A stretch of DNA of 64,000 nucleotides, from the IMG/VR virus record IMGVR_UViG_3300026043_000014, positions 6,588-70,587 of that record; one strand, written 5' to 3'. A model generated the notes under the pieces. The model saw only the letters and a program-made list of their open reading frames with translations, did not search any database and had not been told where the DNA came from. The first letter of the stretch is position 1; each line of letters starts with the position of its first letter. Below, in pieces: positions 5,863-62,940 of this stretch. A program made the position numbers and the translations under genes. Source of the stretch: a virus. Lineage: Duplodnaviria; Caudoviricetes.

Positions 5863-5892
5863 ACAGCCGCGCGGGGCTTCGAATGCCGCGAC
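5863..5892 (+). CRISPR. orphan CRISPR repeat (3' 30 nt of the array repeat)
   Basis: ACAGCCGCGCGGGGCTTCGAATGCCGCGAC, 29/30 to the array consensus; 37 nt upstream of a GTG at 5930. Confidence 0.9.
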
Positions 5893-5929
5893 ATCGCGAG
5901 GCCCGCGACGTCGAGGGGGCGCACGAGCC

Positions 5930-6079
5930 GTGACCTGCCGTTGGCACCGTCGCCGCAAAGCCGTCGTGATCGGCATTTGCTCGAAGCTCGGGTACTGCCG
6001 CGAGTGCTGGCCTTCAGACAAGAGGCTACCGCCGAGACTCGATCTACCTTTCGACAGCGCGATTTGGTTGGCGGCGTGA
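5930..6079 (+). CDS. small Cys-containing protein (49 aa)
   Basis: GAGGGG RBS upstream; CxxxxxCxxC; GTGA overlap with the next gene. Confidence 0.5.
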   Translation: MTCRWHRRRKAVVIGICSKLGYCRECWPSDKRLPPRLDLPFDSAIWLAA

Positions 6080-6330
6080 GCGTTGTTTGGCACCTCGTAG
6101 GCTGGCTCGCGTTCGCGCTGAATGTGTGGGGGAACGTGATGCTCACCACCAAATCAAAATCCGGTTGGATCGTCCGGCTCGTGTGTAACCTGTGCTGGCT
6201 TCCGTACGCGGCGCTGACCGGAGCGTGGGCGCTCTTCGCAAATCACGTCGTGTTCATCGGCGTCAACGTTCTCGGTTGGATCCGATGGAGCCGAGAAGAA
6301 GACGCATTCGAGAAACAGAGGTCCGCGTGA
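6076..6330 (+). CDS. short PnuC-like membrane protein
   Basis: About three hydrophobic helices; GWIVRLVCNLCWLPY...GWIRW pattern. Confidence 0.55.
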   Translation: MSVVWHLVGWLAFALNVWGNVMLTTKSKSGWIVRLVCNLCWLPYAALTGAWALFANHVVFIGVNVLGWIRWSREEDAFEKQRSA

Positions 6331-7341
6331 AGTGCATCTCTTGCGACACCTTTCTACAGGATGCGATTCCCGAAACATCCGAAGGTGATCCTCGACAGCA
6401 ACCGAACTACGGTCTCGTCTGCTACAGCCATGGCAACTTCGGCTCCGCGTTGTTCGATCCGATGGACGGCGCGTCGAGCCTCGAGTTCTACCTCTGCGAC
6501 GAGTGCGCGAAGAAGAAGGCCGAGATCATCTACTTCGTGGAGGCCCGCGCGACGAAAGCAGAGAACGTTTTCATGACGTTTGATGAATTTCTCAAGCGGA
6601 AGGCGGCTCAATGAGCCGCCCTTTTGAACGATACGTCAGTCTGCTTGAACAACTCTACCTCGCCCGAAGCAAGCAAGAGCTCACGATGCAGGAGGAGTAC
6701 ACATTCGCTTGCGACCTTGAGAGTCTTTGGGACGAGCTCACCGAAGCCGAACAGCAGCAAATCGAGGAGATCACCGAGACGCTCAGCGGGAAGAAGCAAT
6801 GAGTACGTGGATCGCAGTCGGTTAGACGAAGGAGAAGAGCTGTGAAGAAGCCACCTGAGACGAAAGCAAAACAGTCAGTTACTCTTCCTTTCGACGAAAT
6901 GCGAAAGAGGATCGAAGTTCGTGTCACCCAAAAAGCCGCAGTCAAGCTGCACGAAGAGTTGATGATTGCTCGTTCGATCGTTCGAGACATTTTTGGTGGA
7001 GGAGATCCCGATCTGATTCTCCAGGTTCGGAAACTTCTGCGCCAAGAAGAAGAGTACGGCGAATGAAGCGCGATCAGATTCGCATCGGTCCTGAAATCGG
7101 TCCAGGTGTCCGCACCGCGGTCATGCGCGACGTCGAAGGTGATCATGCCGTGCTCATGACCCAGGTGCGTGATGGCGTCCCCATTCCCGACGGATCCGAA
7201 ATCGTGGAGATTGATACGACGTGCCGCGAGGGGTGGCATGACGTGATCAGCCGCAGCGGTCCGGTGCAGGTTGCAACGCCCGCGTACCGTGAGGGGTACG
7301 ATCGGATCTTCGGCAAGAGAGTAGAAGTGGGGCAGGCGTGA
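6327..7341 (+). CDS. run of small hypothetical genes (6327-6614 Zn-finger-like, 6611-6802, 6842-7066, 7063-7341)
   Basis: Successive ATGA/GTGA overlaps; CxxC pairs in the first. Confidence 0.6.
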
Positions 7342-7979
7342 TCGATTGGTTTTTCATTTTCGTCGTTGTCGCGTTCGTAGCGATCGTTGCCTACAGCGCG
7401 GGGAGAGGCTCTGTTGCGCACATTAACTGTATCCAAATTTTGGCTGAGCAGCGTCGAAAGCTATGGATGCTTCTCGATCACATCGATACGCTCGACGACT
7501 CTTGCCGCGATGACGATTTGACTTTTCGTGCGCTTACACGAGTGTGCCAAAAGAAGCGTTTCGAAATTTGGGTGCCGGCTGACGACGCCGAAGTGAAGAC
7601 ACCCCAGCAGCGCGTAGCCGCATGGGTCGCCGAAGTTCTCGGCGCGGACGCGGCTCAGGACGGACCGGAACGCGTGCTCCGAACTGCCGAAGAGGTCGTC
7701 GAGCTCGCCCAAGCCGTCGGTCTTTCTTCGACGGTGCTTCATCGGCTCGTCGACTACGTCTACGCGCGCCCGGTCGGCGACGCCGCGCAAGAGATCGGCG
7801 GATCGCTCATCACGCTCTACTCGGCGGCGGAAGCGCTCGGCGTGGACGTCGAGACGCAGTTCGAAAAAGAGCTCGCGCGAGTTCGTCGACCGGAGGTCGT
7901 GGAGAGGGTTCGACGCCGGCAGCAAGAGAAACGAGAGGCGCTCGTGGGAGACGTAGGAGACGTGGGAGAAGAACGATGA
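7338..7979 (+). CDS. MazG-like NTP pyrophosphohydrolase domain protein with N-terminal TM helix
   Basis: ERVLRTAEEVVELAQAVG...YVYARPVGDAAQEIGG. Confidence 0.6.
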   Translation: MIDWFFIFVVVAFVAIVAYSAGRGSVAHINCIQILAEQRRKLWMLLDHIDTLDDSCRDDDLTFRALTRVCQKKRFEIWVPADDAEVKTPQQRVAAWVAEVLGADAAQDGPERVLRTAEEVVELAQAVGLSSTVLHRLVDYVYARPVGDAAQEIGGSLITLYSAAEALGVDVETQFEKELARVRRPEVVERVRRRQQEKREALVGDVGDVGEER

Positions 7980-8323: not shown

Positions 8324-8493
8324 CGTGGTCGATCGACCCAAGATCACGATCTCCTACAGCGTCGCGGAGATCCGACACCTCCATTCGGAGATCGGCGATC
8401 TGCCGAATTCCCGCCTGGGTCCGAAGCTTCGAGAATTCTACCGGCGGCTCGAAGCGTTGTTGAATCTCTATCCGACGAAAAAGGTGAAAAAGC

Positions 8494-12825: not shown

Positions 12826-14322
12826 TCACGGCAGAAACGCGATCGCAGACGGGGTGACCGGCACTCCAGCAAGCGCCGTCTGAATCGTCTGTGTGAACAG
12901 ATCTGAGAGGAATGTCGGCGTCGGGATCGTTGCGGGAGAGAGCGGCGGAGGCGGCGGGGGTCCCGCGGTGGCCGGCGCGACGAATTGGCCGAGCGGCGCC
13001 GATGACTGCGCATTCGTCGGAATGGTCGCGGCTGCCGGATCGACCAAGAACGCGGCGGTCGCCTTTTTCAGGACCGACGATCCGATGTTCCCTTTCGTGC
13101 CCTTGTTGCTGTTCACGCCGACGTTGTTCGTGCCGGTGAAGTTGTCGTCGATGCCGTCGTACGCCTCGGTAAGCGTGATCGCGGTCGGCGTGACGACGTC
13201 GACCGTGTAGAGCCGCTGCTGTGTCTCGAAGAGCGTGTTGAGCGTGAACTGCGATGCGAAGCGGATGACGTCGCCCTGGGCAAGCACGGCGCTCTGATCG
13301 ACCGAAGTCGTCACGCGCGAGGAGCCCGTCGAGACGAAGAAGTCCCCCGCAAGCTGAGGAAAGCTCGTGCCTTGCTGAGCGAGCGTCAGGTACGACGGAG
13401 GCAGGTACGCCAGGTGCCGCTCGATGAGCAGTTGTCCCGCGTCGGTGGCGGGGCTCCGGAAGAAGTCCGGCGTCGGTGGCGGCTCTCCCGGCAGAGGCGC
13501 GAGCGCGCTCGAGAGCTCGACCAACGTGAGCTCGCCGACGTTGTTCTCGAATGTACCGGCGGTGGCGACGACCATGCTGATGATTTCGGCGATGTCGACG
13601 CTGCCGGCGTCAAGCGTGACGGGTGCCGGTCTCTTTCCTGTGAGGTTCACTGTGACAGTGAAAGGCCCCCCGCCGACGGAATCGTCGTAGGTGAGCTCGA
13701 TCGTTCGTGCTCCTGCGCCGGCTGCAATCGCGGGCGTTGTCGCGGCGACCGCATCGGTGTCGAGCTCCGAGGTCGAGTAGATTGCTGCGAGTGTCACGGG
13801 CGCGGGATCTGTGAAGAACGCTCCGGTGTTCGCCGTCGTGCCGGTGTACGCAGCGGTGAGTGTGAGCTCGGTGTCGGTGAGAGCCATGATCTCGTAGAAG
13901 ACGCCCAACTGAGAGAGGAATTGGATCTGACTGCCCACGCCGAGCGTCTGAAGCTGTGATTGCGTCGTCGGCACGGCGGCAAGTCCGTTCTGCGGAAAGA
14001 AAGATCCGCCGAGCGTGATCGACTCGACCAACGGATACGGCGGCACCGGCGGCGTCGACGTGTTTGGGTGGCACGGGAACACCGGCGGCGCCTCGGGAGC
14101 GTTCACTGAATTGAGATTGAGCGTTAACGTGCGCGTTGCAACGCCCACGCCGGCCGCGGTCACGTCGGAATCGACGGTGAGCCCGAAAAGCTGCCCGAGC
14201 ACTGGATCGTTGGTCGGATTTCGGTAGAGTGGCACCGCTCCGAGCGCGGTGGCGGCTCCCGCAGCGTCGAGAATGCTTCCAGCGACGTCAACGGTCCACT
14301 CGAGCACGATTTGATCAGCCAT
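12826..14322 (-). CDS. Thr/Ala/Val-rich beta protein, putative virion spike or fibre
   Basis: 498 aa from MADQIVLEW; repeated TLTAAYTG/TLTEAYDG units; lies in the structural block. Confidence 0.6.
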   Translation of the reverse strand: MADQIVLEWTVDVAGSILDAAGAATALGAVPLYRNPTNDPVLGQLFGLTVDSDVTAAGVGVATRTLTLNLNSVNAPEAPPVFPCHPNTSTPPVPPYPLVESITLGGSFFPQNGLAAVPTTQSQLQTLGVGSQIQFLSQLGVFYEIMALTDTELTLTAAYTGTTANTGAFFTDPAPVTLAAIYSTSELDTDAVAATTPAIAAGAGARTIELTYDDSVGGGPFTVTVNLTGKRPAPVTLDAGSVDIAEIISMVVATAGTFENNVGELTLVELSSALAPLPGEPPPTPDFFRSPATDAGQLLIERHLAYLPPSYLTLAQQGTSFPQLAGDFFVSTGSSRVTTSVDQSAVLAQGDVIRFASQFTLNTLFETQQRLYTVDVVTPTAITLTEAYDGIDDNFTGTNNVGVNSNKGTKGNIGSSVLKKATAAFLVDPAAATIPTNAQSSAPLGQFVAPATAGPPPPPPLSPATIPTPTFLSDLFTQTIQTALAGVPVTPSAIAFLP

Positions 14323-14565
14323 GAGCCTGAGAGTACCAGGGACGGCGCTCTCGCGAGGTCTTGAAAGCCGCGACGGTGCCCGACTCCACAGACGCCGCAT
14401 ACGGACCCGTATGCGGGCCTCGTACGGACCGCCGAAAGCACCGTGGGTTGCGGAAAAGCCGGGCATTGCGAGGGAGTTGAAGGGGCGGCGTCCGACGGCG
14501 GCTGCGCGGGGGTCGATCGCCCTTGTTTCTTTGTCCGAGAAGGGGGTATTATTGGACACACTATC

Positions 14566-16296
14566 GTGAGTTCCGATGATACTGTAATTCTTTGCGAGGC
14601 GGAGGTCGTCGAGACCGGCACAGAGCTTGCCAAAGCGCCTTCCGCCGCGCTGGTGGCCGCTTTAGAGCGCGCCGACGAGTATCGACGCCACACGAAGGCA
14701 GAGGCCACGGAGGCGGCGTACGCGAGCGACTGGAGGCGTTTTCTGACCTGGGCGGCCTCGGCCGGTGCCGCCCCGCTCCCGGCGACGCCGGAGATCGTCA
14801 GCGCGCACCTGAGTTGGCTCGCGGAGGAGGGGTACAGCGTCGCGACGCTGGAACGCTTTTTGGCGGCCGGGAGCCACTTCCATCGCGCCGCCGGGTCCGA
14901 CTTTCCGCGTAACGCCTACGCGGTTTCGGAGACGTTGAAAGGCATTCGGCGACGGGTAGGCGTAAAGCGCACCAAAAAAGCGCCCCTGGGGCTCACGGCG
15001 CTCTCCGAAGCGTGCACACGCGTTCTTCGGGAGAGCGACGGCGCCGAGGCCCCCGAGCGACGGCTGGCTCTTCGAAACCGAGCCATGTTGACCGTCGGTT
15101 GGTTCTGCATGCTCAGGAGCGCCAATCTGGTTGCGATCCGCCGAGAGCACGTACGTTTGGTGCGCTTCGACGGAGACGGCTGGATCGACGACGAGGATCG
15201 ACCAACTGGATTGATCGTGCACCTACCTGAGAGCAAGACAGATCAGTTGAAAGAAGGGCGCGACGTCGCAGTACACGCCCAAGCGGATGAGACGGTGTGC
15301 CCGGTACGCGCGCTCAAAGACTATTTGAGCGCTGCGTCGATCGGTCCCGAAGATCGGATCTTTCCCGTGAGTGAGCGCACGGTGTCGCGCCTTATCAAAC
15401 GTCTGGCGGCGAACCCGGAGCACGGGCACAAATCGTTGAAAGAGATCGCGCGCTGCGATTCATGCGCTACGGCTGCGAAGCGATTTGCGAGTCACAGCCT
15501 TCGTCGAGGTGCGGCGACTGCGCAAGCTCAGAGAGGTATCTCGGAGCGCGAGATCATGCGGCAAGGGGGTTGGAAGAACGAGCGTGTGATGCGCGGTTAC
15601 ATCGAGCACGCGACGCTTTTTCAAAACAACCCGACAAAGGATCTCTCAGGCGTCGTTGAAGAAAGAGGACGAATGGTCGCAGGACATGAGCAAGCACTTG
15701 AAAATCACTTCGACAAAATCACGAAGAAGAATCCCGAGTGGGTGAATGTCGTGAGCGAGATCCGCACGAAACTTTTCGACGGCGCCTATCATCAATGGCT
15801 CGTAGACGCTTTCTTTCAGAAGTGGAGAGGAAATCCGTCGCTCGCAGAGGTGTATTGTTTCAGCCAGCTGTACTCTAGCTATTTGAAAGGTGAAATCGGA
15901 ATCTTTTCCGTAGGAACGTCGTCATGTCCGTTGCCGGACAAGAACAAGAGCGGCAATCAAGCCGTTCTCGACGGTCTCCCCGATCTGTTTGAAGCTCAGT
16001 TCTTCGGCGGAATTGGGGACAACGACGGGAAGTTCGAGTGGAAACGTCCAGTGAAAATCACACGCTGTTTCGCCAATGCGGACGGTACGCAACGCGAAGA
16101 ACCTTGGGAGTGTCCTCCGACTTGGCTTCCGTTGGAAGTCGGGTACACAGCTGTCAGCAAAACGTTCGAGCACGTGGTCTCAGAGTTCGGAGTTGCTCGG
16201 TGGCCTTACGACTACGAAATGATCATCGTGCTCGTTACACACCCTTCTCTCCGCGAACGGAGACGAGAAAAATTGCGTCAGATGGGGTTTGCATGA
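14566..16296 (+). CDS. Cre-like tyrosine recombinase/integrase with an approx. 200-aa C-terminal extra domain
   Basis: SAM-like N-domain (AYASDWRRF); catalytic R (MLRSANL), K (SKTDQ), HSLRRG, GGWK, VMRGY; likely start GTG at 14566. Confidence 0.92.
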   Translation: MSSDDTVILCEAEVVETGTELAKAPSAALVAALERADEYRRHTKAEATEAAYASDWRRFLTWAASAGAAPLPATPEIVSAHLSWLAEEGYSVATLERFLAAGSHFHRAAGSDFPRNAYAVSETLKGIRRRVGVKRTKKAPLGLTALSEACTRVLRESDGAEAPERRLALRNRAMLTVGWFCMLRSANLVAIRREHVRLVRFDGDGWIDDEDRPTGLIVHLPESKTDQLKEGRDVAVHAQADETVCPVRALKDYLSAASIGPEDRIFPVSERTVSRLIKRLAANPEHGHKSLKEIARCDSCATAAKRFASHSLRRGAATAQAQRGISEREIMRQGGWKNERVMRGYIEHATLFQNNPTKDLSGVVEERGRMVAGHEQALENHFDKITKKNPEWVNVVSEIRTKLFDGAYHQWLVDAFFQKWRGNPSLAEVYCFSQLYSSYLKGEIGIFSVGTSSCPLPDKNKSGNQAVLDGLPDLFEAQFFGGIGDNDGKFEWKRPVKITRCFANADGTQREEPWECPPTWLPLEVGYTAVSKTFEHVVSEFGVARWPYDYEMIIVLVTHPSLRERRREKLRQMGFA

Positions 16297-16720
16297 AGCT
16301 CCGACTCGTCGATGCTCTCCGAAATCCTCGGACGCTCGCCGCCGCGCTCAAGTCGCGTCCGGGCGCCGAGCTCGAGCATCTGTCTGGTGACACGTACCGG
16401 CGGAATTTCACGGGCGACGTCGCGCAGTGCGGATGCCGCTGGGAGCGCGTCGCCGGATTTGGGAACGTTCTGCGGCTGTGCCTGATCCACCAGGCCGCGA
16501 CCGACGCGGCCGTCGAACGCGAGAGGAGCCGAAAATGACGAGAGAGCGATCGATCTGTCGTAGGTGCCACAGGTTCCGCATCGTCGATGAGGTGCGCTAC
16601 TGCCCGAGCTGCGCCGATGAGATTGCGGAAATGAAGAAACCAAAGAGGCGCGCCGTCGAACAGGACCGCGAGCAGTCCCGCGACGGGGGAAATGCGGTCA
16701 CCGCTCGAAAAACGGACTAA
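16293..16720 (+). CDS. two small genes (16293-16538; 16535-16720 Zn-ribbon CxxC...CxxC)
   Basis: ATGA overlaps after the integrase. Confidence 0.6.
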
Positions 16721-16858
16721 ATGTGCGTACCCTCGAAGGAAGAGTGGGATCCGAGTGCCGCTACGAAGGCCGGCGGAGTCGAGAAAAGACCGCGATGCAA
16801 GGAAGTGCTCGCAAACCGCGATGCAAGATCGCGATATCGTTACGGGCTCAGGAGAGAG

Positions 16859-17594
16859 CCAGCAACAGCCGCGCGGGGCTCCGAATGCCGCGACCCCCGC
16901 ATACCGGGTCAGCGTGTACGGGTTGCCCCCCAGCAACAGCCGCGCGGGGCTCCGAATGCCGCGACATCGAGGTCGCGAAGTACATCGGCGCCGACGTCCC
17001 CCAGCAACAGCCGCGCGGGGCTCCGAATGCCGCGACGAGGACGACGACGGCGAGGGCGGCGAGGGCTGCGGGCCAGCAACAGCCGCGCGGGGCTCCGAAT
17101 GCCGCGACGCATGCGATCGGTCGCGGGCGAAAAAAATGTAATCGACCAGCAACAGCCGCGCGGGGCTCCGAATGCCGCGACCGCCGGATGGGGTGTCGCG
17201 TTCACCACGGGCACGACAGCCAGCAACAGCCGCGCGGGGCTCCGAATGCCGCGACGAGACGTCCCAAGCGATGCTTCAAGCCGAACTCGAGCCAGCAACA
17301 GCCGCGCGGGGCTCCGAATGCCGCGACGTACTCAGCACGGCTAGTACGTCATGCGGGGGCACACAGCCAGCAACAGCCGCGCGGGGCTCCGAATGCCGCG
17401 ACGATTCCGTCTTCTCTGCGTCGGACAGCCTCCGCATCCCCAGCAACAGCCGCGCGGGGCTTCGAATGCCGCGACCAGAAGAGGCCAGATCACGAGCCAG
17501 CAACAGCCGCGCGGGGCTCCGAATGCCGCGACGGCCGAAGGCCTGCGTCGATAGTCATCCAGCAACAGCCGCGCGGGGCTCCGAATGCCGCGAT
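16859..17594 (+). CRISPR. CRISPR array, 11 repeats and 10 spacers, type V-like repeat
   Basis: 36-bp CCAGCAACAGCCGCGCGGGGCTCCGAATGCCGCGAC at 16859, 16930, 17001, 17073, 17146, 17220, 17292, 17367, 17440, 17497, 17559. Spacers are 35, 35, 36, 37, 38, 36, 39, 37, 21, 26 nt. Last repeat ends GAT; a partial remnant ends at 17629. Confidence 0.98.
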
Positions 17595-17662
17595 GAGATG
17601 GGCGGACGCCGACTCCGCCATGCCGCGACCAGAAGTGACCATCGCGAAATCGGACCGTGACA

Positions 17663-19120
17663 TCAAGGATAGGGTCCGATCACAGCGGGAGACACGATCT
17701 GAGGACTCGATGTTTGCACGGACTTCTGTGCCGGTTTCGGCGCGGGGGTTCCCGGCGCTTTGCTGGTTCTGAGCGTGGGGGGTTTTCGGGGTGCGGGAAC
17801 GGCCGCGGGGGCTGTCCCCGTGCGCAGTGTCGGCGGTCGGCGAATGGCCGCGGGAGCTGTCCCCGTGCGCAGTGTCGGCGGTCGGCGAACGGCCACAGAG
17901 GTCAGCTCTTTTGCCGAGGGGAGCCAAGGGATGTTTTTCTTCTGCGATGCCAGTGCGAGATCGAACCCGGCTTGGGCTTGTGGCGACAGCTTGCTTCGCA
18001 AGATCGCGAGCGCTTGCGGGCTGATCCCTTCGTGTCCGAGAGCCCCCATTGCGAGCGCGTACCCTGGCGCCACATCTTTGGGAATTGCGGAGAACGCTTT
18101 CAGCACGTCGGGTTTGGAGACGACGGCCTTGATCCAATCGCCGGCAACACTTCGCAGCTGATCAGCCCCCATTTTCGCGAACCCCTGCACCAGAGCTTGT
18201 TGAATGTTCTGCCCGGATGCGACGGCAAGCCCGATATCGAACGCTTTTCGTGCCAAACCTTCAGGCACGAGGTTACGTGCGCTCTCGAGTGCGGCTTTTC
18301 CTACGTTCTCTCCTTTTGCCACTTTCATTGCGGCATCGAATCCGGCTGCGGCTATCGGCCCCCCAGGCAAAGCACTGCGAACAGCCGCCTTCGCAGCTTC
18401 GTCGATCCCTTTGCCTTCGGCGAGAGCAACGCCCGCACCGATTGCAGCGGAAACACCGCTACCTACTCCGGGAACCATCGACACTACGGCTTGCGCGTAG
18501 GGAGCGGCTTCTTTCGCGATGCGAACTTGATCTTTGATGGACTTTAGCAGCGCTCTGTCAAGCCTGGCGCCTGAAGCGATGTCCTTCGCTAACTTGAGCG
18601 GGCCCGTAGCCGCTTCTCCGACAATGCGTGTCACGTCACCGAGGACGGGAATACTCCCGGCTACGTCGGCAATCGCGTTCGCTGCATCGATCGGTGCTTT
18701 GATAATGTGTCCGGCGATTTTCAACCCCTGGCCAGCAATCTCCAGAGGGTTGTAGGTTGTGTGCTGTGTGCGCCAGAAAGGAGGGTGAGCGAGCGCATTG
18801 TTGCGATCTCGCTGGCGCTGCGGGTAGTTCGGATCCTTCCAGAAAGGGTGATCCCAATCATAGAGAATGCCGACATAGGCAGGAGTCTTCGTGCTGTCGG
18901 TGCCTGTTACGGGAGTGAGCCCGTAGGACGGATCACGCCCGTAACCTTTCATCCACATCGACGCCGCGAACGCACGACGAGCTACTGTGCGAGGTTTTTC
19001 GGCGTCGTGGATTGCAGAGGACAACCATCTCGGGATGGTCTTTCGCATAGTCGCAGGGACTTTGTTGCGATCGAACCCCACACCGATTGAAGTGAGTTGT
19101 TCGCCCAGAAAGACCGTCAT
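17663..19120 (-). CDS. Ala/Gly-rich putative virion or membrane protein with three C-terminal R(R/K)PPTLRT repeats
   Basis: Amphipathic Gly/Ala core; tandem repeats at about 17780-17890. Confidence 0.65.
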   Translation of the reverse strand: MTVFLGEQLTSIGVGFDRNKVPATMRKTIPRWLSSAIHDAEKPRTVARRAFAASMWMKGYGRDPSYGLTPVTGTDSTKTPAYVGILYDWDHPFWKDPNYPQRQRDRNNALAHPPFWRTQHTTYNPLEIAGQGLKIAGHIIKAPIDAANAIADVAGSIPVLGDVTRIVGEAATGPLKLAKDIASGARLDRALLKSIKDQVRIAKEAAPYAQAVVSMVPGVGSGVSAAIGAGVALAEGKGIDEAAKAAVRSALPGGPIAAAGFDAAMKVAKGENVGKAALESARNLVPEGLARKAFDIGLAVASGQNIQQALVQGFAKMGADQLRSVAGDWIKAVVSKPDVLKAFSAIPKDVAPGYALAMGALGHEGISPQALAILRSKLSPQAQAGFDLALASQKKNIPWLPSAKELTSVAVRRPPTLRTGTAPAAIRRPPTLRTGTAPAAVPAPRKPPTLRTSKAPGTPAPKPAQKSVQTSSPQIVSPAVIGPYP

Positions 19121-42295: not shown

Positions 42296-43075
42296 TCAGG
42301 CCAACAGCGCCTCGAGCTGCTTTTTCGTCCCGCGAAAGACGTTCAGATCGCAATCTCCCGAGATCCCTCGCACAGATCCGGTACTCGTGTACTGCCAGAA
42401 GAGCCACGGCCAGCCGGGGAAGTCGGTGGGCGTGTCCGGCGGAGATCGCCGGTAGTCCGCGAGCCACAGAGGGTACCCCGACAAGCGGGAATAGCCTCCG
42501 AGTTCCAAATGCAAGAAACCGGAATACGTGTAGATGATCGACTGCCGACCTGTCCGATCCGACACACGCTCGCACCAACACGCGCACCAATCGATTAGTT
42601 CTGCCGGTTTCGGCAGATTCGGATGATCGTCTTCGATGTCCAACACCGGCGGCAAGAGTTTGCCGAATTTTTCGTGTGCGGTTTCCCAGACTTTCAGAAA
42701 ATGATCAGCCTCTCGAGCAGATCCGCCACTCGGATTGTTGCTCGGCCGAGCGAAATGGTAGATGCCCAAGAGAGACGTCACAGTACTCAGTCGATCCAAA
42801 TGATGCATAGTCATCGGATCGCTATACGTCGTCCCTTCGGTGGCTTTCACGAAGGCAAATTCCACGCTATCAAAACCTGATCCAAGCGTCTGGTGATGCG
42901 AGACGTCGATGCCTCGCGGCCATGGTCCCGCAAAGGGGAGAACCATGCGGACGGCATCGAGCGTTTTCGGACCGAACTTCCCGTCGACAACCAGATCGTT
43001 CTGCTTCTGGAAGGCACGTACTAGATCGATGAGATCCGGAGTCGTCCTTTCGTGAATGTACTCTTCGGGTGTCAT
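42296..43075 (-). CDS. endolysin: PG-binding domain plus GH25 muramidase
   Basis: VRAFQKQNDLVVDGKFGPKT; GIDVSHHQ, FVKATEG, GIYHF, VLDIE, FWQY, CDLN. Confidence 0.93.
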   Translation of the reverse strand: MTPEEYIHERTTPDLIDLVRAFQKQNDLVVDGKFGPKTLDAVRMVLPFAGPWPRGIDVSHHQTLGSGFDSVEFAFVKATEGTTYSDPMTMHHLDRLSTVTSLLGIYHFARPSNNPSGGSAREADHFLKVWETAHEKFGKLLPPVLDIEDDHPNLPKPAELIDWCACWCERVSDRTGRQSIIYTYSGFLHLELGGYSRLSGYPLWLADYRRSPPDTPTDFPGWPWLFWQYTSTGSVRGISGDCDLNVFRGTKKQLEALLA

Positions 43076-43113
43076 GCATTTACTTTAGCAGGGGGTAGGC
43101 GCTTCGGACATCC

Positions 43114-43301
43114 GTCGCAGCATTCGAAGCCCCACGCGGCTGTTATGGAAATCGTCCGCCGGTCGCGGCTGTCGTGGAAATCCATCCGTGACTTCTTCTT
43201 GTCGCGGCGTTCGGAGCCCCGCGCGGCTGTTGAGCGGTGCTCACGTGACTCAACCGGCTCGCGGCGTCGCGGCATTCGCAGCCCCGCGCGGCTCACGGAC
43301 A
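43114..43301 (-). CRISPR. degenerate mini-array: three repeats (43266-43301, 43201-43236, 43114-43149)
   Basis: Cores match the main repeat with 1-3 substitutions; gaps of 29 and 51 nt; the 51-nt gap holds a collapsed repeat remnant (ACAGCCGCGAC). Confidence 0.85.
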
Positions 43302-44030
43302 CACAGCAATGCTACCGGAAAAACCGGTGGTACCGCAGGCTTTACCGATTTCGCATTGACTCAAATCTGTGCAGGTCCCCACCTGCGTGGCCCCTTCCCA
43401 GCAGGTCCACAGATTGGCGGAATCGCACGGCTGAAAAACCACGGCGTTGCCTTTGCAACAAATACCGTAGCACTCTCCGTCGCCGCACCACGGCTTGTCT
43501 CCCCCGCAGGTCACACCAAGCGACCACGATCCCGAGGCGTCGCAGATCGTCTGTTGCCTTGCTGTTGAGCACGATCGATCGCCCGGTTTACACTCGACGC
43601 ACGCGCCATCGAGGCACCAACCTTCGCACGGCGCGCCGTTGTCGAGCCACGAGCCGCCGACGCACTTCTGTCGCTGCGCGCCGATGCACTGAGTCTCGGC
43701 GGTCGTGCAATCGCCCGCGGCCCCGCCGGTCGATGCGCCGCCGGTCGATGCACCGCCGGTCGATGCACCGCCGGTCGATGCACCGCCGGTCGATGCGCCG
43801 CCGGTGCCTCTTCCCGAGGTCCCGCCGGTCGATGCCCCGCCGGTCGATGCTCCGCCGGTCGATGCGCCGCCGGTCGACGGGGCGTCAACGTCTTCCGTCG
43901 AGACGCCTCCGTCGATCTGAACATCTGCAAGCGGAGGCCCCGCATCGGCCGTACCATAAAGCCCTACGCGGAAAGCATCTCCATTCCCACAGCCGACGAG
44001 CAAAAGACCCAAGACGATTCCCATTTTCAT
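43293..44030 (-). CDS. myxobacterial-type lipoprotein with STGGA repeats and Cys-rich C-terminus
   Basis: LLLVGC lipobox; (STGG[A/T])n; repeated Cys motifs. Confidence 0.85.
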   Translation of the reverse strand: MKMGIVLGLLLVGCGNGDAFRVGLYGTADAGPPLADVQIDGGVSTEDVDAPSTGGASTGGASTGGASTGGTSGRGTGGASTGGASTGGASTGGASTGGASTGGAAGDCTTAETQCIGAQRQKCVGGSWLDNGAPCEGWCLDGACVECKPGDRSCSTARQQTICDASGSWSLGVTCGGDKPWCGDGECYGICCKGNAVVFQPCDSANLWTCWEGATQVGTCTDLSQCEIGKACGTTGFSGSIAVCP

Positions 44031-44857
44031 GATGCGTTCCTTCCGGAAATCAGAAGCTCCGTCACATTGCCCCGTTTGTTGCCCTTCGAATTCACTCGAC
44101 GAGGTGCAGAGACCTCCTCGATCTTGAATCCTTTGTAGAGCTCGCGCACGAACGGCGTATCGCTATTCGACAGGAGGACGTGAACCCCTCGCGAATCGAG
44201 CTCGAGAAAGAGGTCCCGGAGGCGGGTGTGATCGGCCTCACCGAAACCGCCTGCGGAGTACGCAGTGAAGTTTGACGTCCTGTTGAACGGCACGTACGGC
44301 GGATCGAAGTAGACGGCGTCTCCGGGTCCGGCGCTGTAAAAGACTTCGCCGAAGTCGCAGGAGAGAAGCCGCACTTTCTCGAGCGCGTCGTGCACTGCCA
44401 AAAGGTTCTGCTTGTCCAAGATCTTCGGATTCGCGTACTCCCCCATGGGCACGTTGAACTTGCCGGAGCGGTTCACGCGGTAGAGGCCGTTGAAGCATGT
44501 GCGGTTCAAGTAGATGAATCGCGCCGCACACTCTTTCCGTTTCGACGGCTCCTGTGCTCGGACCGCGTAGTAGAAGACCTCGCGGTGTTCTCGAGCGAAT
44601 TCTTCGAGCAACGCGACGACGGGAAATGGATCCTCCTGAAGCGCTTTGTAGGTCCGCATCAGCTCCACGTTGGCGTCAAAGAGCTCTGCGTGATCGAACC
44701 TCCGCTCGTTCGCAAGCGCAAAGAAGACGGCGCCCCCTCCTAGGAAGGGTTCGAAGTACGTTCCAATCCTCTTGGGGAGCCTCGGAAGGATCTCGGGCAA
44801 GAGCACGGTCTTGCCTCCCGCCCACTTGAGAAACGGCTTGGGGGTAGGTTGGCTCAC
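44027..44857 (-). CDS. D12-class (Dam family) N6-adenine DNA methyltransferase
   Basis: KPFLKWAGGK, EPFLGGG, FIYLNRTCFNGLYRVN, YFDPPY. Confidence 0.93.
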   Translation of the reverse strand: MSQPTPKPFLKWAGGKTVLLPEILPRLPKRIGTYFEPFLGGGAVFFALANERRFDHAELFDANVELMRTYKALQEDPFPVVALLEEFAREHREVFYYAVRAQEPSKRKECAARFIYLNRTCFNGLYRVNRSGKFNVPMGEYANPKILDKQNLLAVHDALEKVRLLSCDFGEVFYSAGPGDAVYFDPPYVPFNRTSNFTAYSAGGFGEADHTRLRDLFLELDSRGVHVLLSNSDTPFVRELYKGFKIEEVSAPRRVNSKGNKRGNVTELLISGRNAS

Positions 44858-45828
44858 GAACCCCCCTTGTGGCGTTCGAGCATGGCCTTCGCTACCGTAC
44901 CCAGATCGAAGAGCACCTTCCGGAGTTCGTCTCGCTCTCTCGCCAGCCGTTCAGATTTGTCGAAGAGCTCTTTGATGGCGGTTCTGGCAGCGAGTGGCGA
45001 CGGTATGGCGCCGAACGCGACGGATTCGATCGCGGCTCGCCATTCGTTGCACTCATTACGGAGACGAATGTTTTCCTTCTCGAACGCATCGGCGCGCTGC
45101 GACTGTTTGGCCAGGATGTCACGCAAGGTGTTGTCGTCCATTTCTGCGCGTCTCATTTCCTTTTTACCTTCAGACGTTCGTGCAAGGCGCCGATGGGATC
45201 GACGATCAAAGCCGCCGCGGTCTTCATCGCGTCAGGCAAATCCGACGCTTCGATGGCCTGTCGCGCCTCCGTTCGCTCACGTTGCTCTTCAAGATGCTGC
45301 TCTAGCTTCTGTGCCGATTGTGCGAACCTCGAAAACCGACGCACTTGCCGTCGTCTCATTGCCGCCTTGCGTTGCCTCTTCGCTCGGCTCATTTCGAGAA
45401 CCCGCCTTCCGCCTTCTCGATGCGATCGATCAGCACCAAGACGATTCGTATCAGTTCTTGGACTCGTCGCGCTATCTCGGCGTCGTTCACCAAGAACGGC
45501 TCGTGCCGGTGCACCTGAGTGTACGGCCCAAGCCGACGCATCGTCTCTTTCAGGTCAGCGCGAAGGCCGTCCAAGTCGTCTTTCACTTTTTGCCTCGCGT
45601 AATCTCCGCGGAAAGGACGCTCAGAGAAGTGCCTACGCCGCCGAGCCTGTCCGCGATCTCCTCCAGCAGAGAGTCACGTTGGGCGATTTCGTTTCTTAAT
45701 CGTTCGACTTCAGCGGCGTGCGCCTTGATGAGTCGGTCGACTTCCTCTTTCCGAGAGAGTCGTTCGGCTTCTACAGCGCGCTCGTTGGCTTCGTCGCGCT
45801 CACGTTTCAGATCGGCGTACTTCATCAT
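44854..45828 (-). CDS. four small coiled-coil hypothetical genes (44854-45156, 45153-45392, 45389-45586, 45583-45828)
   Basis: Coupled ATGA/GTGA overlaps. Confidence 0.6.
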
Positions 45829-45865
45829 TTCCTCTTTCTTCGGCTACGCTGCTGGTTGCTGCGCT

Positions 45866-45893
45866 GTCGCGGCGTTCGAAGCCCCGCGCGGCT
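45866..45893 (-). CRISPR. orphan repeat core fused to the cas12 stop codon
   Basis: TAG-CCGCGCGGGGCTTCGAACGCCGCGAC, 26/28 to consensus; followed by 37 nt, then the ATG at 45828. Confidence 0.88.
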
Positions 45894-47685
45894 ATGCGAC
45901 CTTCCTCTTCTTCGCGCGATCGAGGATCACCTGGCGCGCGCCGTAGTCCTTGTCTCGGGCGCGTCCGCACTTCGGACAGACGACGATGAGCTCCGGTCCG
46001 TTCACTTCGAGAAGGCCGTCGCAATTCTTTTCCGGGCACTCTCGCGTCGAATTGTGTGCCGAGACCTCGACGACGGTGCCGAAACGCTTGCAGATAGACA
46101 CGAACTCGTACCGGGCCGTGAGATCGCGATTGGCCCTCTGCCGGCGCTTGCGCTCCTCTTTGATCTGCACCTGCTGGATCTGCTTCACGTTCTCCGCCTC
46201 GAACGCGAAGGTCGAGTAGCGTTGACGAAGCTCTCGGACGACCCCGATGTAGAGCTCCTTTCGGAGGTTCTGGAACCGCTTCCGTCGCTGTTCGACACGT
46301 CGTTCGTAGCGCATCTCCCAGCGGAGCCACGCGGTCTCCTCCTCGGTCTTCACGCCGCTGCGCATGAGCATCCGTCGGTAACCCCAACGATTCATCTTGT
46401 GCGGCAGCTTGAGCGCTGCTTTTCGTCGATCGAACATCTCGTCCATGCGACCCTTCAGTTCATCGATCTCGTCGAGCGCCTTGCGGCAGGCATTCGGGAT
46501 CAGGACTTCGCCGACCTGACCGTCGTCCCCGATCCATGCGAACGCACGGATCCCCTCGCGCCATCGATCGTGGCCGTGCTCACGGTGGCCCCAATCGAAC
46601 GCAACCGTTCCTCCGGACTTCGTCGGGACGAAATTCTTGCTCTTCGATTTCTCGATGTCGAAAGTAAGGCTCAGGCTGTACGACCAGCGCTCACCGTCGA
46701 TGCGCCGCGTGAGCTTCGCAGTCGTCGGCTTTTTCCCCTCAGGGATTTCGTGCCAGTTGTTGCACTCGGCCTTGAGTCGCACCCATTCGTCCTCGAGCCC
46801 GATGCGCAGCTCGATCGTCCACCACGGGGACGTGCGCTTGACGAGATTGATGGCAGCCCCGGGAGGTAGCTTGTGCCCCTGGAGCTTCTCCGAGGGGAAG
46901 CAGTCGACCACACGGTCGTCAACGCGGACCTCGGCAGCGGACCACGGCTCGCCACGACTGAGGATGCGAATGCCGACGGGATCCATCGCGAGAGACGTCG
47001 GATGGCGGAACTTCGGCCGGCGGATCTCCGCGGGCATCCCTTTCGCACGAAGCGATATCACGTCCCGACGGGCCTGATCGACGCTCTTGCAGAGCGCGTT
47101 CCACGTGCCCCAATAGATCCGCCTCTCGGGGGAGTTGTAGAGCTCCGTTCGATACTTCTCGCGACGAGACCGCCGTGGCGCCTTCGCGACCTTCGCCGCG
47201 TAGTGCTCGTCGGATTCGTCAGTCGTCAAAAGCGTGAACCTCTTCTCCCACGCCTCGTCCGTTTCACCTTTGCGGCGCTTCACTTTCGCCGCCGGCTTCG
47301 CGCGACGTCGGCGAACGGCCTTCGGTTCACCGACTTCTTCGTCGGCCCACTTGAGAGCCTCCTTCCAGCGGGGATCAGCGTTGCGGATCTTCCGGGCTTC
47401 TTCGAGCCGAATCTTGAGCTTCGCGGCGAGCTCCGGCTTGGGATCGGGGGCCCAGCGACCTTCTGGGGTGTGTTCGACCCTTTTCACTCGGCGCGCGAGT
47501 TGCGCAAGGATGCGCCCCGTGCGCACGATCCCCGGCGCGATCTCGTCAGCGGCCGCGTCGAGGATCTTTTGGTGCTCGGCTTCGAAGTCGAGGAGCCGAT
47601 GGTAGATCCATCGTGCGTTTCGGTATTCCTCGCCGAGACGATCTTCGTCTGAGAGGATCCTGGCCGGTCTGCTGAGTGTGATCAT
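45892..47685 (-). CDS. cas12m: compact type V CRISPR effector, Cas12m (V-M/V-U1)-like
   Basis: IYWGTWNAL...RAKGMPAEIRRPKF resembles Cas12m as I recall it (LYWASFN...RASGKPATLRHHRF). RuvC-I TVAFDWGHR, RuvC-II FAFEAEN, Zn finger and RuvC-III CPKCGRARDKDYGA; Arg/Lys-rich insertion; adjacent repeat. Confidence 0.8.
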   Translation of the reverse strand: MITLSRPARILSDEDRLGEEYRNARWIYHRLLDFEAEHQKILDAAADEIAPGIVRTGRILAQLARRVKRVEHTPEGRWAPDPKPELAAKLKIRLEEARKIRNADPRWKEALKWADEEVGEPKAVRRRRAKPAAKVKRRKGETDEAWEKRFTLLTTDESDEHYAAKVAKAPRRSRREKYRTELYNSPERRIYWGTWNALCKSVDQARRDVISLRAKGMPAEIRRPKFRHPTSLAMDPVGIRILSRGEPWSAAEVRVDDRVVDCFPSEKLQGHKLPPGAAINLVKRTSPWWTIELRIGLEDEWVRLKAECNNWHEIPEGKKPTTAKLTRRIDGERWSYSLSLTFDIEKSKSKNFVPTKSGGTVAFDWGHREHGHDRWREGIRAFAWIGDDGQVGEVLIPNACRKALDEIDELKGRMDEMFDRRKAALKLPHKMNRWGYRRMLMRSGVKTEEETAWLRWEMRYERRVEQRRKRFQNLRKELYIGVVRELRQRYSTFAFEAENVKQIQQVQIKEERKRRQRANRDLTARYEFVSICKRFGTVVEVSAHNSTRECPEKNCDGLLEVNGPELIVVCPKCGRARDKDYGARQVILDRAKKRKVA

Positions 47686-51764: not shown

Positions 51765-51769
51765 AACCA

Positions 51770-59080: not shown

Positions 59081-59097
59081 GCCCAGTTAGACGCCTA

Positions 59098-59789: not shown

Positions 59790-59848
59790 CATGACGCACC
59801 CCTGAGAAGACACGGACCCCGGCCGAACCGGGGAGGAAGAGTGGAGAC

Positions 59849-61845
59849 ATGAAAACGAGCTACCGCTACGCAGTAACCGGCGATTTCGATCGCATGGTGT
59901 ACAGCCGCCACCGCACGCTAGCGGCGGCCGAGCGTGCATGCCGTGCGCTCGCCGCCAGGTGGGGCCGCAGTCACCCTGGGTCGGAGCCTCGGGTTATTCC
60001 GCTGGCAGCGGAAGCGCACCGTTGCCCGAGCGAGGTGGCGTCGTGAGCGCGCACGCATTTTTTCACCGCGGCACCGCTATCCTGGCGGTAGCGATCCGGA
60101 CCGACAGAGACCCTGCCGTCGTCGCGGCCGAGTACGGCGTGGACGTCTCGGGGCTGGACATGCGTGGGTCGGTCCAGGTAGCCGCTGCCCCTAGCTCGCC
60201 GGAGGCCGCCACGGCGGCCGCGAAAGCGGATGCTGAGACGCGCGCCATAGCGCGCCTCCCATGCCCGAACGACGCCTGGACCATGAGCGACCGACGGTGG
60301 CTCGATCGCGAGCGAGCGCGCGTCTCGCGCGAGGCACGCGAGTCCGTCGCCCCGTTTCAGGGCCCCGAAGCCGAATGGCTTCGGGACTTTCGCTGACCAC
60401 CTGACCACCCCCGCGCTGGACGCCCGTCCCCGCCCGACTCGGCACGTCGGGCAGCGCGCCAAGACACCCGGGAGAGACCGGGAGGAAGGAGCATCGACCA
60501 ATGACCACGGCCACATCCACCCCCGACCTCCGTGCCGTCGTGCGCTACGCGATCGAATGCGCTGGCCTAGCCGCGTGGTGCGCAGGTCTTGACCTGAGCG
60601 AATACCTTTGGCCGGCGGCCGAGGCCGCGGACCGTGGCGACTTCGATGCCGCCGCCATCGCCGCCTTTGGCGCCTTCCGCGCTTCTCGCACCGACGGCGG
60701 CCTCTGTGCCCACGCCTCTTGCGCCGCCGCCCGCGCCTCTCTCGCCGCTGACCGAGGAGACTACGCCGCCGCCAACGCCGCCGCCCGCGCCGCCTTCTAC
60801 GCCGCCGACGCCGCCGCCTACGCCGCCTACGCCGCCTTCTACGCCGCCTTCTACGCCGCCGACGCCGCCGCCGCCAGCGCCCGCGCGCGGGCGCTACTCA
60901 TACCTGACGCGCCGGACGCCCGCGCGCTTCGAACCCGTGTCGCTGAGCACATCGCGGCTCACCCCGAGACGCACGACCCATCGACGTGGGGCACCGGCGC
61001 ACCCGAGTGCGGTACCGCGCAGTGCGCCGCAGGATGGATCTGCTCACTCGGTGGCGGCACGCGCGGTCTTCCCGTCGAGCTCGTAGCGCGTGCTCTGTCG
61101 CACGTGGACGGCGCGGAGCGGGTCGTGTTCGATCCGGACGCTTCGCGCGGTGAGGTCCTCGCGTCGCTTCGAGTGCCCGAGGATGACTAGAGAAGGGACC
61201 CCATGACCACGAAACAAATCCAAATCGCCATCCGGCTGCCCGAGACGCTTCTCACGAGGCTCGACAAGATCGCCGCGCGAATGAGCGCTTCCGGCGTCCC
61301 GGTGACGCGCGCCGAAGTGCTTCGTCTCGCGGCGACCAAGGGTGTGGAACGGCTCGAGAAAAAACGATGAAGCCGCCCCGAGGTCTCCCCGATCGCGTCT
61401 GGGTTGTCGTGCTCCCTACGGGAGAACGGCACATCATCGACAAGCCGTTCCTCGACGGGATCACCAAGTGGGCCGAAGGCATGGACGTGACGATCGCGGA
61501 GTACGTCTTCATCGAGATCGTTCATCGACCTCCGGACACCGATCTGTGACGGGAGCAATCGCCATCGGTGCTTGGATACTCGCGGGTCTGCTTTCCCTCC
61601 TCGATGCTGCGCTCACTGTCCGACGCTTCGAACGAGTACTCGAACGCTACGTAGTCATCGACATGATTGCTACGCTGTGCCTCTTCCTCGGAGGTCCCAT
61701 CTCGCTGATCAACATCGTGTTGTACAGAGACGGAGCCGTTGCGGAACTGATCAATGACTTCGAATTTCGCCGTGTGATCTCCACCACGGAAGCGATCGAT
61801 CTTCGCCGGGAGTTCGGGCTCCGGCCCTCCGAAACCAAGGAATAG
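59849..61845 (+). CDS. small early-type genes (59849-60046, 60043-60396, 60501-61190 with AAxYAA repeats, 61203-61370 RHH, 61367-61549, 61546-61845)
   Basis: GGAGG RBSs, overlaps, QIAIRLPETLLTRLD RHH motif. Confidence 0.6.
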
Positions 61846-61900
61846 CCCGCGATTTTCTCCGGACGTAGACCCGTCTCGGAAGAGCCGATAAGCTTCTCCC

Positions 61901-62881
61901 ATGTCGCACCTGATTGGCCGTGGCCGTTCGCCCGAAACCTACCCTCGAAAGGTCGTCGGTACTTCGACACCTCAGACCATCAATCCATTGACGGCGACCT
62001 GGTTCGTCGACGGTAGTTTCGGGGCAGCCACGCCAGATGGCAGCATCAACGCCCCATACCCGTCGCTTCAGGCCGCCTTCGACGCAGCTGTCGCTCAGGC
62101 GATCCCTCTGCTGACGCTTCTTCTCGTGGCCCCCGACGCCACGCCGTTCGTCCGACAAGCCGCGGGCAACGCAATCGCTCTTCGCATCGTAGGGCTGGGG
62201 CCCTACCTGGCCGGCGTCGTCACGGCGATGAGCATCGACTGTGCGAACGCAGGACCGATCACCCTACTGGAAAATCTGGCGATCGATACGCTGCTCTCCG
62301 CCGACAATCCGGTCACGCTGAGACGCTGCATCATCAACAGTGAAATCACCACGACGGGAGGGGCTACGATCCTCTTCCAAGACGACAGCATCATCGGAGG
62401 CAACGTGGTCGCCAACGTTGCCGGTCAGCTCCAATTCCAGAACACGACCTTCAAGCCGCCACAGAACATGACGGCAGACGTGTTCACTTTCGACTCGCAA
62501 AGTGAAGAATCGTTTTTCAACGGAGGCTCGGGAGCGATTACTCCAGTTGCCGACGGCCAAATCGGTACCTTCGAAGTCGATCTACCGCCGACCTCTCGCA
62601 TCGCAACCGACTCGAATCTCACGGACACCGCCGAGACGAACGGTCGCATCATCTATCCCGAGGCTACGCTCACTGTCGGACGTACGCTCACCTTGCAGGT
62701 CGGAACAGGAGTAGCCAACAAATCGATGCTGATCGATGTGTGGCCGCAAGGAAGTAACCTCTCTGTGGTCGATCAAACCAGCGCAGCGACGATCTACACG
62801 ACCAATGGAGGAGATCGTCTAGTCGCCTCGTTCGACGCGGGCACGAGCGTGTGGTCGATTCTGTTGCGATCGATCCTGTAG
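61901..62881 (+). CDS. putative spike/adhesin of the GRGR-ExYP family, outside the structural block
   Basis: MSHLIGRGRSPETYP; WFVDGS...DGSINAPYPSLQAA motif; beta-helix-like body. Confidence 0.7.
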   Translation: MSHLIGRGRSPETYPRKVVGTSTPQTINPLTATWFVDGSFGAATPDGSINAPYPSLQAAFDAAVAQAIPLLTLLLVAPDATPFVRQAAGNAIALRIVGLGPYLAGVVTAMSIDCANAGPITLLENLAIDTLLSADNPVTLRRCIINSEITTTGGATILFQDDSIIGGNVVANVAGQLQFQNTTFKPPQNMTADVFTFDSQSEESFFNGGSGAITPVADGQIGTFEVDLPPTSRIATDSNLTDTAETNGRIIYPEATLTVGRTLTLQVGTGVANKSMLIDVWPQGSNLSVVDQTSAATIYTTNGGDRLVASFDAGTSVWSILLRSIL

Positions 62882-62884
62882 ATC

Positions 62885-62940
62885 GTTGCGGCATTCGGTG
62901 CTCCGTCACGGCATTCGAAGCCCCGCGCGGCTGTTGTGCA
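62885..62940 (-). CRISPR. orphan repeat (62905-62940) plus an abutting half-repeat (62885-62904)
   Basis: CAACAGCCGCGCGGGGCTTCGAATGCCGTGAC directly after the TAA of 62941..63207, then GGAGCACCGAATGCCGCAAC (17/20 to the repeat 3' end). Confidence 0.85.

Follow-up and report, generated by a model that had tools for sequence, protein, structure and literature searches.

A soil phage known from the IMG/VR record IMGVR_UViG_3300026043_000014 encodes a Cas12m-family effector and, besides a main CRISPR array, carries seven intact copies of the repeat scaffold dispersed between its other genes. We analysed a window of 64,000 nucleotides (nt), positions 6,588–70,587 of this record; plain coordinates are those of the window, and coordinates marked "genome" are those of the full record of 70,587 base pairs (bp). 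The reading that we favour, at a probability of about 0.45, is that the dispersed copies are Cas12m-binding modules kept in the phage's own mRNAs, where they would act in cis, by analogy with the repeats that tested Cas12m proteins recognise. The broader proposal, that the phage's Cas12m has become an RNA-binding or RNA-processing factor for its own transcripts and adds a post-transcriptional layer over replication genes, cas12m and lysis, next to the use of the array against sibling phages, goes a step further and is held with more doubt. The observation behind the original prediction, a CRISPR-based regulon of repeats in viral mRNAs, was real, and its interpretation was partly supported.

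Scaffold copies between genes

The record, classed as complete with direct terminal repeats (terminal overlap of 127 bp), has a GC content of 62%. Its gene map came from a codon model trained on the genome's own long open reading frames (ORFs), which gave a coding density of 90%. When the window was searched for the 28-nt core of the repeat (AGCCGCGCGGGGCTCCGAATGCCGCGAC) with up to three mismatches, 17 matches were obtained against 0 expected, and 11 of them make up the main array. All six of the repeat cores previously reported outside this array were confirmed, here placed at 5865(+), 43266(−), 43201(−), 43114(−), 45866(−) and 62905(−), and a seventh intact core was found outside the window, which brings the intact dispersed copies to 7 at 5 loci. 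A covariance model built from the repeat family and run on the whole genome scored these copies (hereafter orphans) at 41–53 bits and all intact copies, those of the array included, at 41–56 bits; the next match reached 21.6 bits. Every copy was intergenic and in sense orientation to its flanking genes. The intact orphans, together with the gene downstream of the mini-array, are as follows:

5861–5892 (core from 5865), plus strand: solitary scaffold, 70 nt past a gene for a HicB-like protein of 91 amino acids (aa) and 48 nt before TTG 5941
45866–45893, minus strand: solitary scaffold, sharing 2 nt with the TAG stop of cas12m (45892–45894); an 81-aa gene begins 37 nt further on, at ATG 45828
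43266–43293, minus strand: mini-array scaffold 1, whose first base is the A of the TGA stop (43293–43295) of a 245-aa ORF
43201–43232, minus strand: mini-array scaffold 2, 32 nt including CAAC
43114–43145, minus strand: mini-array scaffold 3, carrying three C-to-T changes that are compatible with the fold; the endolysin ATG 43075 follows after 38 nt
42296–43075, minus strand: GH25 endolysin gene, downstream of the degenerate mini-array
62905–62940, minus strand: solitary repeat, directly after the TAA stop (62941–62943) of an 88-aa gene
genome 3779–3806, minus strand: intact copy between a DHH phosphoesterase gene, whose stop lies 16 nt away, and a family-A DNA polymerase gene, whose GTG follows after 48 nt

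The report of three copies at stop codons held, as TGA 43293 and TAG 45892 overlap the core and TAA 62941 stands directly before the 36-nt repeat. Three copies had also been described as lying one spacer length before a start codon. Two of these spacings stood (37 nt for ATG 45828, 38 nt for ATG 43075 of the endolysin gene), whereas the third, to GTG 5930, was not credible; this codon opens a frame of 50 codons only, which overlaps out of frame a Pfam-supported PnuC-like ORF whose earliest possible start is TTG 5941. The family-A DNA polymerase gene that follows the genome 3779 copy has a GGAGGAG Shine-Dalgarno sequence. The copy at 62905 lies in a 59-nt gap between convergent genes, with a 326-aa plus-strand gene ending at 62881, and, with no co-directional gene downstream, cannot be an element of a 5′ untranslated region (UTR).

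A consensus scan revealed no sigma-70-type promoter or intrinsic terminator on the copies' strand beside any copy, although host promoter types may differ, and the copies therefore appear to lie inside operon transcripts. We also considered the orphans as terminators and rejected this idea, since none has a GC-rich hairpin followed by a U-run; the repeat ends in GAC and continues into varied sequence. An Rfam scan of the window gave 0 matches at the gathering score, CRISPR-DR families included, and a tRNA scan returned nothing. About ten 15-bp repeats (consensus CCGCCGGTCGATGCA) lie at 43723–43892 within the 245-aa ORF that precedes the mini-array; this ORF has a low coding score, yet is present in the JGI gene calls.

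Scanning metagenomes for the scaffold variant yielded nine loci from other samples, mostly arrays or mini-arrays. The solitary layout recurred on two contigs, L032 and L033, that share no genes with the present phage beyond one 35%-identical protein. On L032 the solitary scaffold comes 21 nt after a stop codon, and the 38 nt that follow it, closing with a GAGGAA Shine-Dalgarno sequence, lead to the ATG of a gene that opens a three-gene operon; on L033 the order is stop, 6 nt, solitary scaffold, 32 nt and a GTG that opens a 25-codon ORF only. The scaffolds at 45866, 43114 and L032 thus end 37–38 nt before a well-supported start, which equals the modal spacer length. This spacing could suit the distance from a bound Cas12m to the ribosome-binding site, or could equally be the footprint of a repeat–spacer unit at an array edge.

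Two further candidates were discarded: L003:1343–1385 is a chance or collapsed-repeat-like match inside a beta-clamp gene, and L001:13193 runs into a small ORF at the latter's 5′ end and departs from the 37–38-nt pattern. Separately, three repeats of the scaffold family analysed here form a mini-array at both L025:3059–3238 and L031:4891–5070, each with a clear hairpin and T-run terminator behind it; this arrangement resembles an independent guide gene and differs from the copies in the present phage, which are embedded in operons.

Fold and conservation of the 28-nt core

The 28 nt that the orphans keep form a pseudoknot in which stem I pairs positions 9–12 with 19–22 (AGCC/GGCU) and stem II pairs positions 14–18 with 30–34 (CGCGG/CCGCG). 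We assessed this fold on 45 distinct repeat variants from the present phage and four relatives, many of which are kin from the same arrays. In this set 98.8% of cells pair, two-sided changes occur at 6 of the 9 pairs (all five of stem II and one of stem I) and compensatory types are numerous, with CG, UA, AU and UG at single pairs; controls with slid partners pair at 29–46% only. Plain RNA folding of a single repeat (z = 0.95) was uninformative because the structure is a pseudoknot. In Cas12m2, the 36-nt scaffold begins with 7 disordered nt at its 5′ end, and its remaining 29 ordered nt make up a pseudoknot plus stem (PMC10442227). The orphans' 28-nt core corresponds to this ordered part.

Conservation follows the same boundary, in agreement with the earlier statement that the 3′ 28 nt are kept while the 5′ end decays. 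Measured against the consensus of the array, 11 of the 196 core positions in the seven orphans are changed (5.6%), as are 31 of 56 in their 5′ 8 nt (55%; Fisher p = 1.3e-15), a contrast that is partly expected, as the first four nt also vary between repeats in the arrays of relatives. Positions 5–8 (CAAC), which are conserved in the family, are lost where the upstream ORF runs into the repeat, at 43266 and 45866; at both sites the ORF takes over the 5′ 8 nt yet stops exactly at the pseudoknot. The core changes themselves also fell where they had been reported, in the loop or as changes of G–C to G–U pairs in the stem. Seven of the 11 are at positions 23 and 28, which are variable loop positions family-wide, and the other four are stem C-to-T changes at positions 16, 31, 33 and, as an addition to the earlier list, 14; all four leave G–U pairs, which can form on the sense strand only. 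The probability that all 11 changes would be fold-compatible was about 2e-4 to 5e-3, and that for the four stem changes alone was 8e-4 to 2.6e-2, according to the transition bias assumed.

The state of position 23 bears on the age of the copies. T23 is present in four orphans and one array repeat, whereas the remaining array repeats have C23, and T23 is the common state in relatives and at the nine other metagenomic loci. Hence the orphans did not arise recently from the array as it now stands.

These results have to be set against the possibility that the orphans are functionless leftovers of a broken cas12m-adjacent array, intact either because the break was recent or through gene conversion with the main array. 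We consider this explanation unlikely, although it is one to be taken seriously. Neutral remnants are not expected to diverge so unequally between core and 5′ end or to accept solely fold-compatible changes, and the T23 of the orphans against the C23 of the array indicates that they are neither fresh copies nor homogenised ones. Nor do leftovers readily explain upstream ORFs that overrun the 5′ 8 nt and halt at the pseudoknot, copies that lie tens of kilobases (kb) from any array (genome 3779, 5865 and 62905), or the recurrence of the solitary layout on L032 and L033. At the level of sequence, core conservation against flank decay, together with the fold-compatible substitutions, supports the view that the orphans are not decaying at random, which the original prediction had named as its alternative.

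The effector, the main array and possible guides

The effector and array features are the following:

45892–47685, minus strand: cas12m, 597 aa, with candidate RuvC residues D364, E496 and D578/D580 and a CxxC...CxxC zinc finger
16859–17594, plus strand: main CRISPR array, 11 repeats of 36 nt (CCAGCAACAGCCGCGCGGGGCTCCGAATGCCGCGAC)
17613–17629, plus strand: degenerate 3′ half of a twelfth repeat at the array end, read directly from the sequence
3173–3207, plus strand: match of 32/35 to array spacer 2 (a near-protospacer) inside the primase/helicase gene of the phage itself

The effector ORF gave weak Pfam and PHROG matches, with a weak Pfam Cas12f1-like_TNB match at residues 536–583, and a phmmer search with it found UnCas12m4a at 1.9e-14. 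A profile of the effector and 30 homologues (31 sequences, length 546) matched best to UnCas12m4a (23vu; 1.7e-23) and Cas12m 23vw (3.4e-21, profile positions 81–533 of 546), and further to Cas12m2 (8hhl; 6.5e-13) and GoCas12m (8pm4; 5e-12); four to five Cas12m structures outranked TnpB and Cas12f. In the alignment of the 31 homologues D364, E496, D578/D580 and the four cysteines were invariant or nearly so. By kinship, a size of about 600 aa and a C-terminal RuvC plus zinc-finger (TNB) module, the effector is classified as a Cas12m-family protein (type V-M), as had been proposed, and its clade is only distantly related to the solved Cas12m proteins (profile E-values of 1e-12 to 1e-23). No match to Cas1 or Cas2 was found in the complete genome, and the locus was taken to contain no tracrRNA, although no search aimed at one was made. 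Tested Cas12m proteins cleave their own precursor CRISPR RNA (pre-crRNA) inside the repeat unaided and, D-E-D variants included, bind DNA without cutting it and silence by binding (PMC11013384). By analogy with these orthologues, pre-crRNA processing and non-cutting DNA binding would be expected of the present effector.

More than 100 homologues of the effector were found, with identities of 34–61%, many of them on phage-like contigs of 45–113 kb. Some are labelled as Polyangiaceae or Sorangium metagenome-assembled genomes (MAGs), and these labels indicate probable myxobacterial hosts. The identical effector was present on five contigs from other samples; as all five are 100% identical to the window, they are uninformative on micro-diversity. 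A tblastn search of the effector against a phage collection gave no match.

The system resembles type V-M as described for TtCas12m2 (PMC10442227) and for GoCas12m and MsCas12m (PMC11013384) in its effector of about 600 aa with RuvC and zinc finger, in having no cas1, cas2 or cas4, and in a 36-nt repeat whose 3′ 28–29 nt form a pseudoknot plus stem, whose 5′ end is dispensable and whose handle precedes the spacer. In described type V-M systems repeats occur in arrays only, whereas here solitary handles are also found between genes of the same element from which the effector comes. The nearest published parallel in setting, and the one account of a phage Cas12m that the literature searched contained, is MvCas12m of the myxophage MV-1, a 610-aa effector beside an array of eight spacers (bioRxiv 10.64898/2026.09.14.751636). 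The two share a phage-encoded effector with a D-E-D triad, no adaptation genes, no identified spacer targets and a probable myxobacterial host group; MvCas12m has its array adjacent and no solitary repeats were described for it, whereas in the present phage the array lies 28 kb from cas12m and seven scaffolds are scattered.

The main array ends the integrase operon, after the tyrosine integrase gene, and is convergent with the next gene. Its spacers measure 35–39 nt, with a modal length of 37–38 nt, except for two short ones of 21 and 26 nt. When the array spacers were compared with the whole genome, only spacer 2 (16966–17000) had a match, at 3173–3207. The match is in frame; three mismatches, at positions 10, 12 and 14 of the spacer, turn Ala-Lys into Ser-Arg, and the 5′ flank of the match is CTGTG. 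From this pattern, spacer 2 probably targets the allele of a sibling phage and the present genome bears an escape version; an exact target of spacer 2 was not found among viral contigs. Between the array and the convergent 485-aa gene, close to the integrase module, a 45-bp unit is repeated 2.2 times at 94% identity (17797–17894), and this may be an attachment or binding site.

The original prediction had allowed that single guides might be made from 5′ UTRs. In such a scheme each scaffold and the following 17–20 nt would be excised as a fixed guide and act in trans, steering Cas12m to a promoter or gene of the host or of a rival phage in the manner of crlRNA, CreR or Cracr. We regard this as quite improbable. 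Silencing by binding would suit regulatory guides (PMC11013384), Cas12a and type I systems are known to have single-repeat crlRNAs with a seed of about 10 nt (10.1101/2024.10.29.618823, 10.1101/2024.12.27.630466), the resemblance of spacer 2 to the phage's own primase suggests a system aimed at siblings, and the phages G002 and L003 run on one to three repeat units. Against this, the best 5′-anchored matches of the orphan flanks in the phage's own genome were 9–11 nt long, all coding and no better than those of array-spacer controls, and unanchored matches in that genome reached 15–16/20 at most, none attaining 17/20. Among the loci of relatives that were compared, spacers and pseudo-spacers showed no convincing cross-match. 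The pseudo-guides are moreover the leaders of the next genes, and the copy at 62905 precedes a partial repeat. As no orphan target was detectable in the present genome, CreR- or crlRNA-style control of the phage's own promoters was not supported. The orphans do resemble host CreA/CreR and phage Cracr units in joining a repeat-like unit to a spacer-like segment; those units act in trans on DNA through a seed of about 10 nt or more to a promoter, flanked by a protospacer-adjacent motif, whereas the action proposed here is in cis on RNA (10.1101/2024.12.27.630466, 10.1101/2024.10.29.618823).

A second role in trans would be that of Racr-like decoys or sponges, which would buffer the level of the phage's own effector or disarm similar Cas12m proteins of rivals or the host. 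Sequestration of Cas proteins by viral solitary repeat units is established, and such units, like the orphans, are single intergenic repeats that keep the Cas-binding fold (PMC10651486). Cross-binding is plausible too, as other phage contigs carry a nearly identical scaffold and an array in a Sorangium MAG has a similar one. We nevertheless judge decoys very unlikely. Racrs mimic host repeats, are typically expressed as a small RNA from their own promoter and are usually unlinked to cas genes (PMC10651486), whereas the orphans match the phage's own array and effector, which would be inhibited equally, have no promoter that we could find and sit in operons at stops and starts. A decoy would have no need of stop-codon sites or fixed start distances.

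Relatives, rearrangement and a role in cis

Several observations weigh against the reading that the copies are kept as cis-acting modules, beginning with the relatives. In three complete viral records (G001, G002 and G003) and two MAGs, scaffolds occurred only in or beside cas12m-adjacent arrays; G001 has 16 plus one copy 420 nt past the array, G003 at least 35 and G002 two to three, and G005 has a second array on another contig. The L003 phage has one intact and one decayed scaffold after cas12m (L003:11706–11808) and none elsewhere in 40 kb. Because no other scaffold was present in the 40 kb examined, its effector may run on a single fixed guide. The closest relative of the phage backbone, a contig represented by L020, L036 and L037, has a primase 65% and an integrase 71% identical to those here, with other genes at 50–77%, and contains no scaffold in 33 kb. 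Its 91-aa HicB-like gene directly precedes the next genes, whereas here a 2.7-kb block intervenes, with the 5865 orphan as its left edge; small genes follow its integrase at the place taken here by the main array. Both the 5865 copy and the main array fall at synteny breakpoints against L020/L036.

Three of these phages or contigs have features of their own. The L003 phage, with L034 and L035, is 78 kb long and occurs on at least 24 contigs from many samples. L020 carries a different CRISPR-like array (L020:5431–5693), with at least four repeats, each about 35 nt long and with GGAAGTGGAG at its end, and spacers of 36–39 nt; it lies about 2 kb downstream of the primase, and no effector was identified in the 33 kb examined. 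The array of G003 (G003:C1:23063–25596; L002:11739–14278) spans 2.5 kb with at least 35 repeats and is unusually heterogeneous for a single effector, its stem II varying by compensation among CGTGG/CCACG, CGCGG/CCGCG, CGCAG/CTGCG and CACGG/CCGTG.

The order of genes points in the same direction. G003 (L002) and G002 (L009) have a contiguous series of cas12m, array, Dam, a 577-aa gene, integrase and a homologue of the 485-aa gene. In the present phage this cas12m–Dam–integrase block is split into two parts, at 12.8–19.1 kb (12826–19120) and 42–47.7 kb (42296–47685), about 25 kb apart; the main array adjoins the integrase and the mini-array follows Dam. The 45866 copy lies where relatives have the first repeat of their cas12m-adjacent array, and in the simplest history it would be the vestige of that repeat. 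We further infer that the main array (plus strand) and the mini-array (minus strand) were once continuous and were parted by an inversion running from about 16.86 kb to 43.08 kb. On this comparison at least the 45866 copy, the mini-array at 43.1–43.3 kb and the main array probably descend from a single ancestral array beside cas12m. As repeats and genes are turned over jointly in an inversion, the sense orientation is in part inherited; it is weaker evidence than it seems and not independent.

Positional conservation in relatives was absent except right after cas12m, and as the relatives have no dispersed copies, the layout is young or confined to this lineage and not a conserved regulon. As judged from these genomes, dispersal is a derived trait of this lineage. 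The numbers are also small, with 7 intact copies at 5 loci, and the spacing to the following start varies (37, 38, 48, and 48 nt or more, with no start at all for one copy). Mutation is known to be biased towards C-to-T on the sense strand, as the original prediction cautioned, so that the argument from stem substitutions is supportive, not decisive. Maintenance is not universal either, as three copies have decayed:

62885–62900, minus strand: partial duplicate of the repeat's 3′ half, 16 nt, with 2 mismatches in 16
43162–43172, minus strand: collapsed repeat (ACAGCCGCGAC), which fits a deletion between two CCGCG direct repeats inside one repeat
genome 261–286, minus strand: loop-deleted copy, 21.6 bits, 11 nt before a small membrane-protein ORF

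What the analysis establishes is that the copies exist, where they lie, how they fold, how they are conserved and to which family the effector belongs. The functional steps of the reading, namely transcription of the copies within operons, binding or cutting by Cas12m and a regulatory effect, are ones that we infer by analogy.

Much of this favours the leftover explanation: the block is contiguous in G003 and G002 and split here, a single inversion (about 16.86/43.08 kb) rejoins the arrays in one orientation, two repeat loci lie at breakpoints, decayed copies exist and relatives have no dispersed ones. Of the random decay considered in the original prediction, it is this lack of positional conservation that stood, whereas the kept core and the fold-compatible changes spoke the other way.

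The breakpoints also raise the possibility that the copies served as recombination sites, either as short homologies or as recombinase sites for the exchange or inversion of modules, similar to attC. Integron attC sites follow the stop codons of cassettes. The 5865 copy and the main array are exactly at synteny breakpoints, the main array following a tyrosine integrase gene; inverted copies could have mediated the proposed inversion, and the collapsed repeat shows recombination within a repeat. We find this the hardest of the explanations to credit. One-strand changes that remain G–U-compatible point to selection on RNA and not on duplex DNA, stems of 4–5 bp are nothing like attC architecture, and the breakpoints are defined by one close relative alone. 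We know of no recombinase that uses CRISPR repeats.

If the copies are instead Cas12m-binding modules acting in cis, selection would keep the sense-embedded 28-nt handles between operon genes as RNA, including those pieces of the ancestral array that remained, which would have been retained because they were useful. The phage's Cas12m would recognise the transcribed scaffold as it does the repeat in pre-crRNA, dock on the handle and thread the next 17–20 nt as a pseudo-guide, and, by analogy with tested Cas12m proteins, the transcript would be cut just upstream of the handle. Since three handles abut stops and several lie 37–48 nt before starts, docking or cutting would separate neighbouring cistrons. 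Cas12m would be left on the 5′ end of the downstream message, beside the ribosome-binding site, where it could tune the stability or translation of the DNA polymerase, the gene after cas12m and the endolysin, and the 3′ end of the cas12m message itself might be trimmed.

Intercistronic sites of RNA processing are known from phage operons. In T7, RNase III sites, which are long hairpins cut by a host enzyme, split the polycistronic transcript and alter its stability and translation. The copies described here are, like those sites, short structured elements in sense orientation between cistrons; a natural version in which a phage uses its own Cas12 was not found in the literature searched. Splitting of mRNAs by Cas6/Csy4 or Cas12a at their repeats has been engineered in synthetic biology. 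Judged by titles and abstracts, the literature searched contained no paper on solitary repeats of a Cas12m system.

Should the reading be correct, it would represent a natural class 2 effector serving as an operon-punctuating RNA factor, of which none has been reported in the literature searched; crlRNAs and Racrs redirect CRISPR effectors always in trans, usually by or against a host system. The phage offers a tractable case, with 70 kb, seven copies, the endolysin, the DNA polymerase and cas12m as candidate readouts, and dispersal-free relatives that expose the derived state. Even if the copies are array debris, they document how fragmentation of an array seeds solitary repeats at phage module junctions. 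Taken with the fold and placement of the copies, our analysis suggests that this phage may use Cas12m on its own mRNAs as well as against rival phages.

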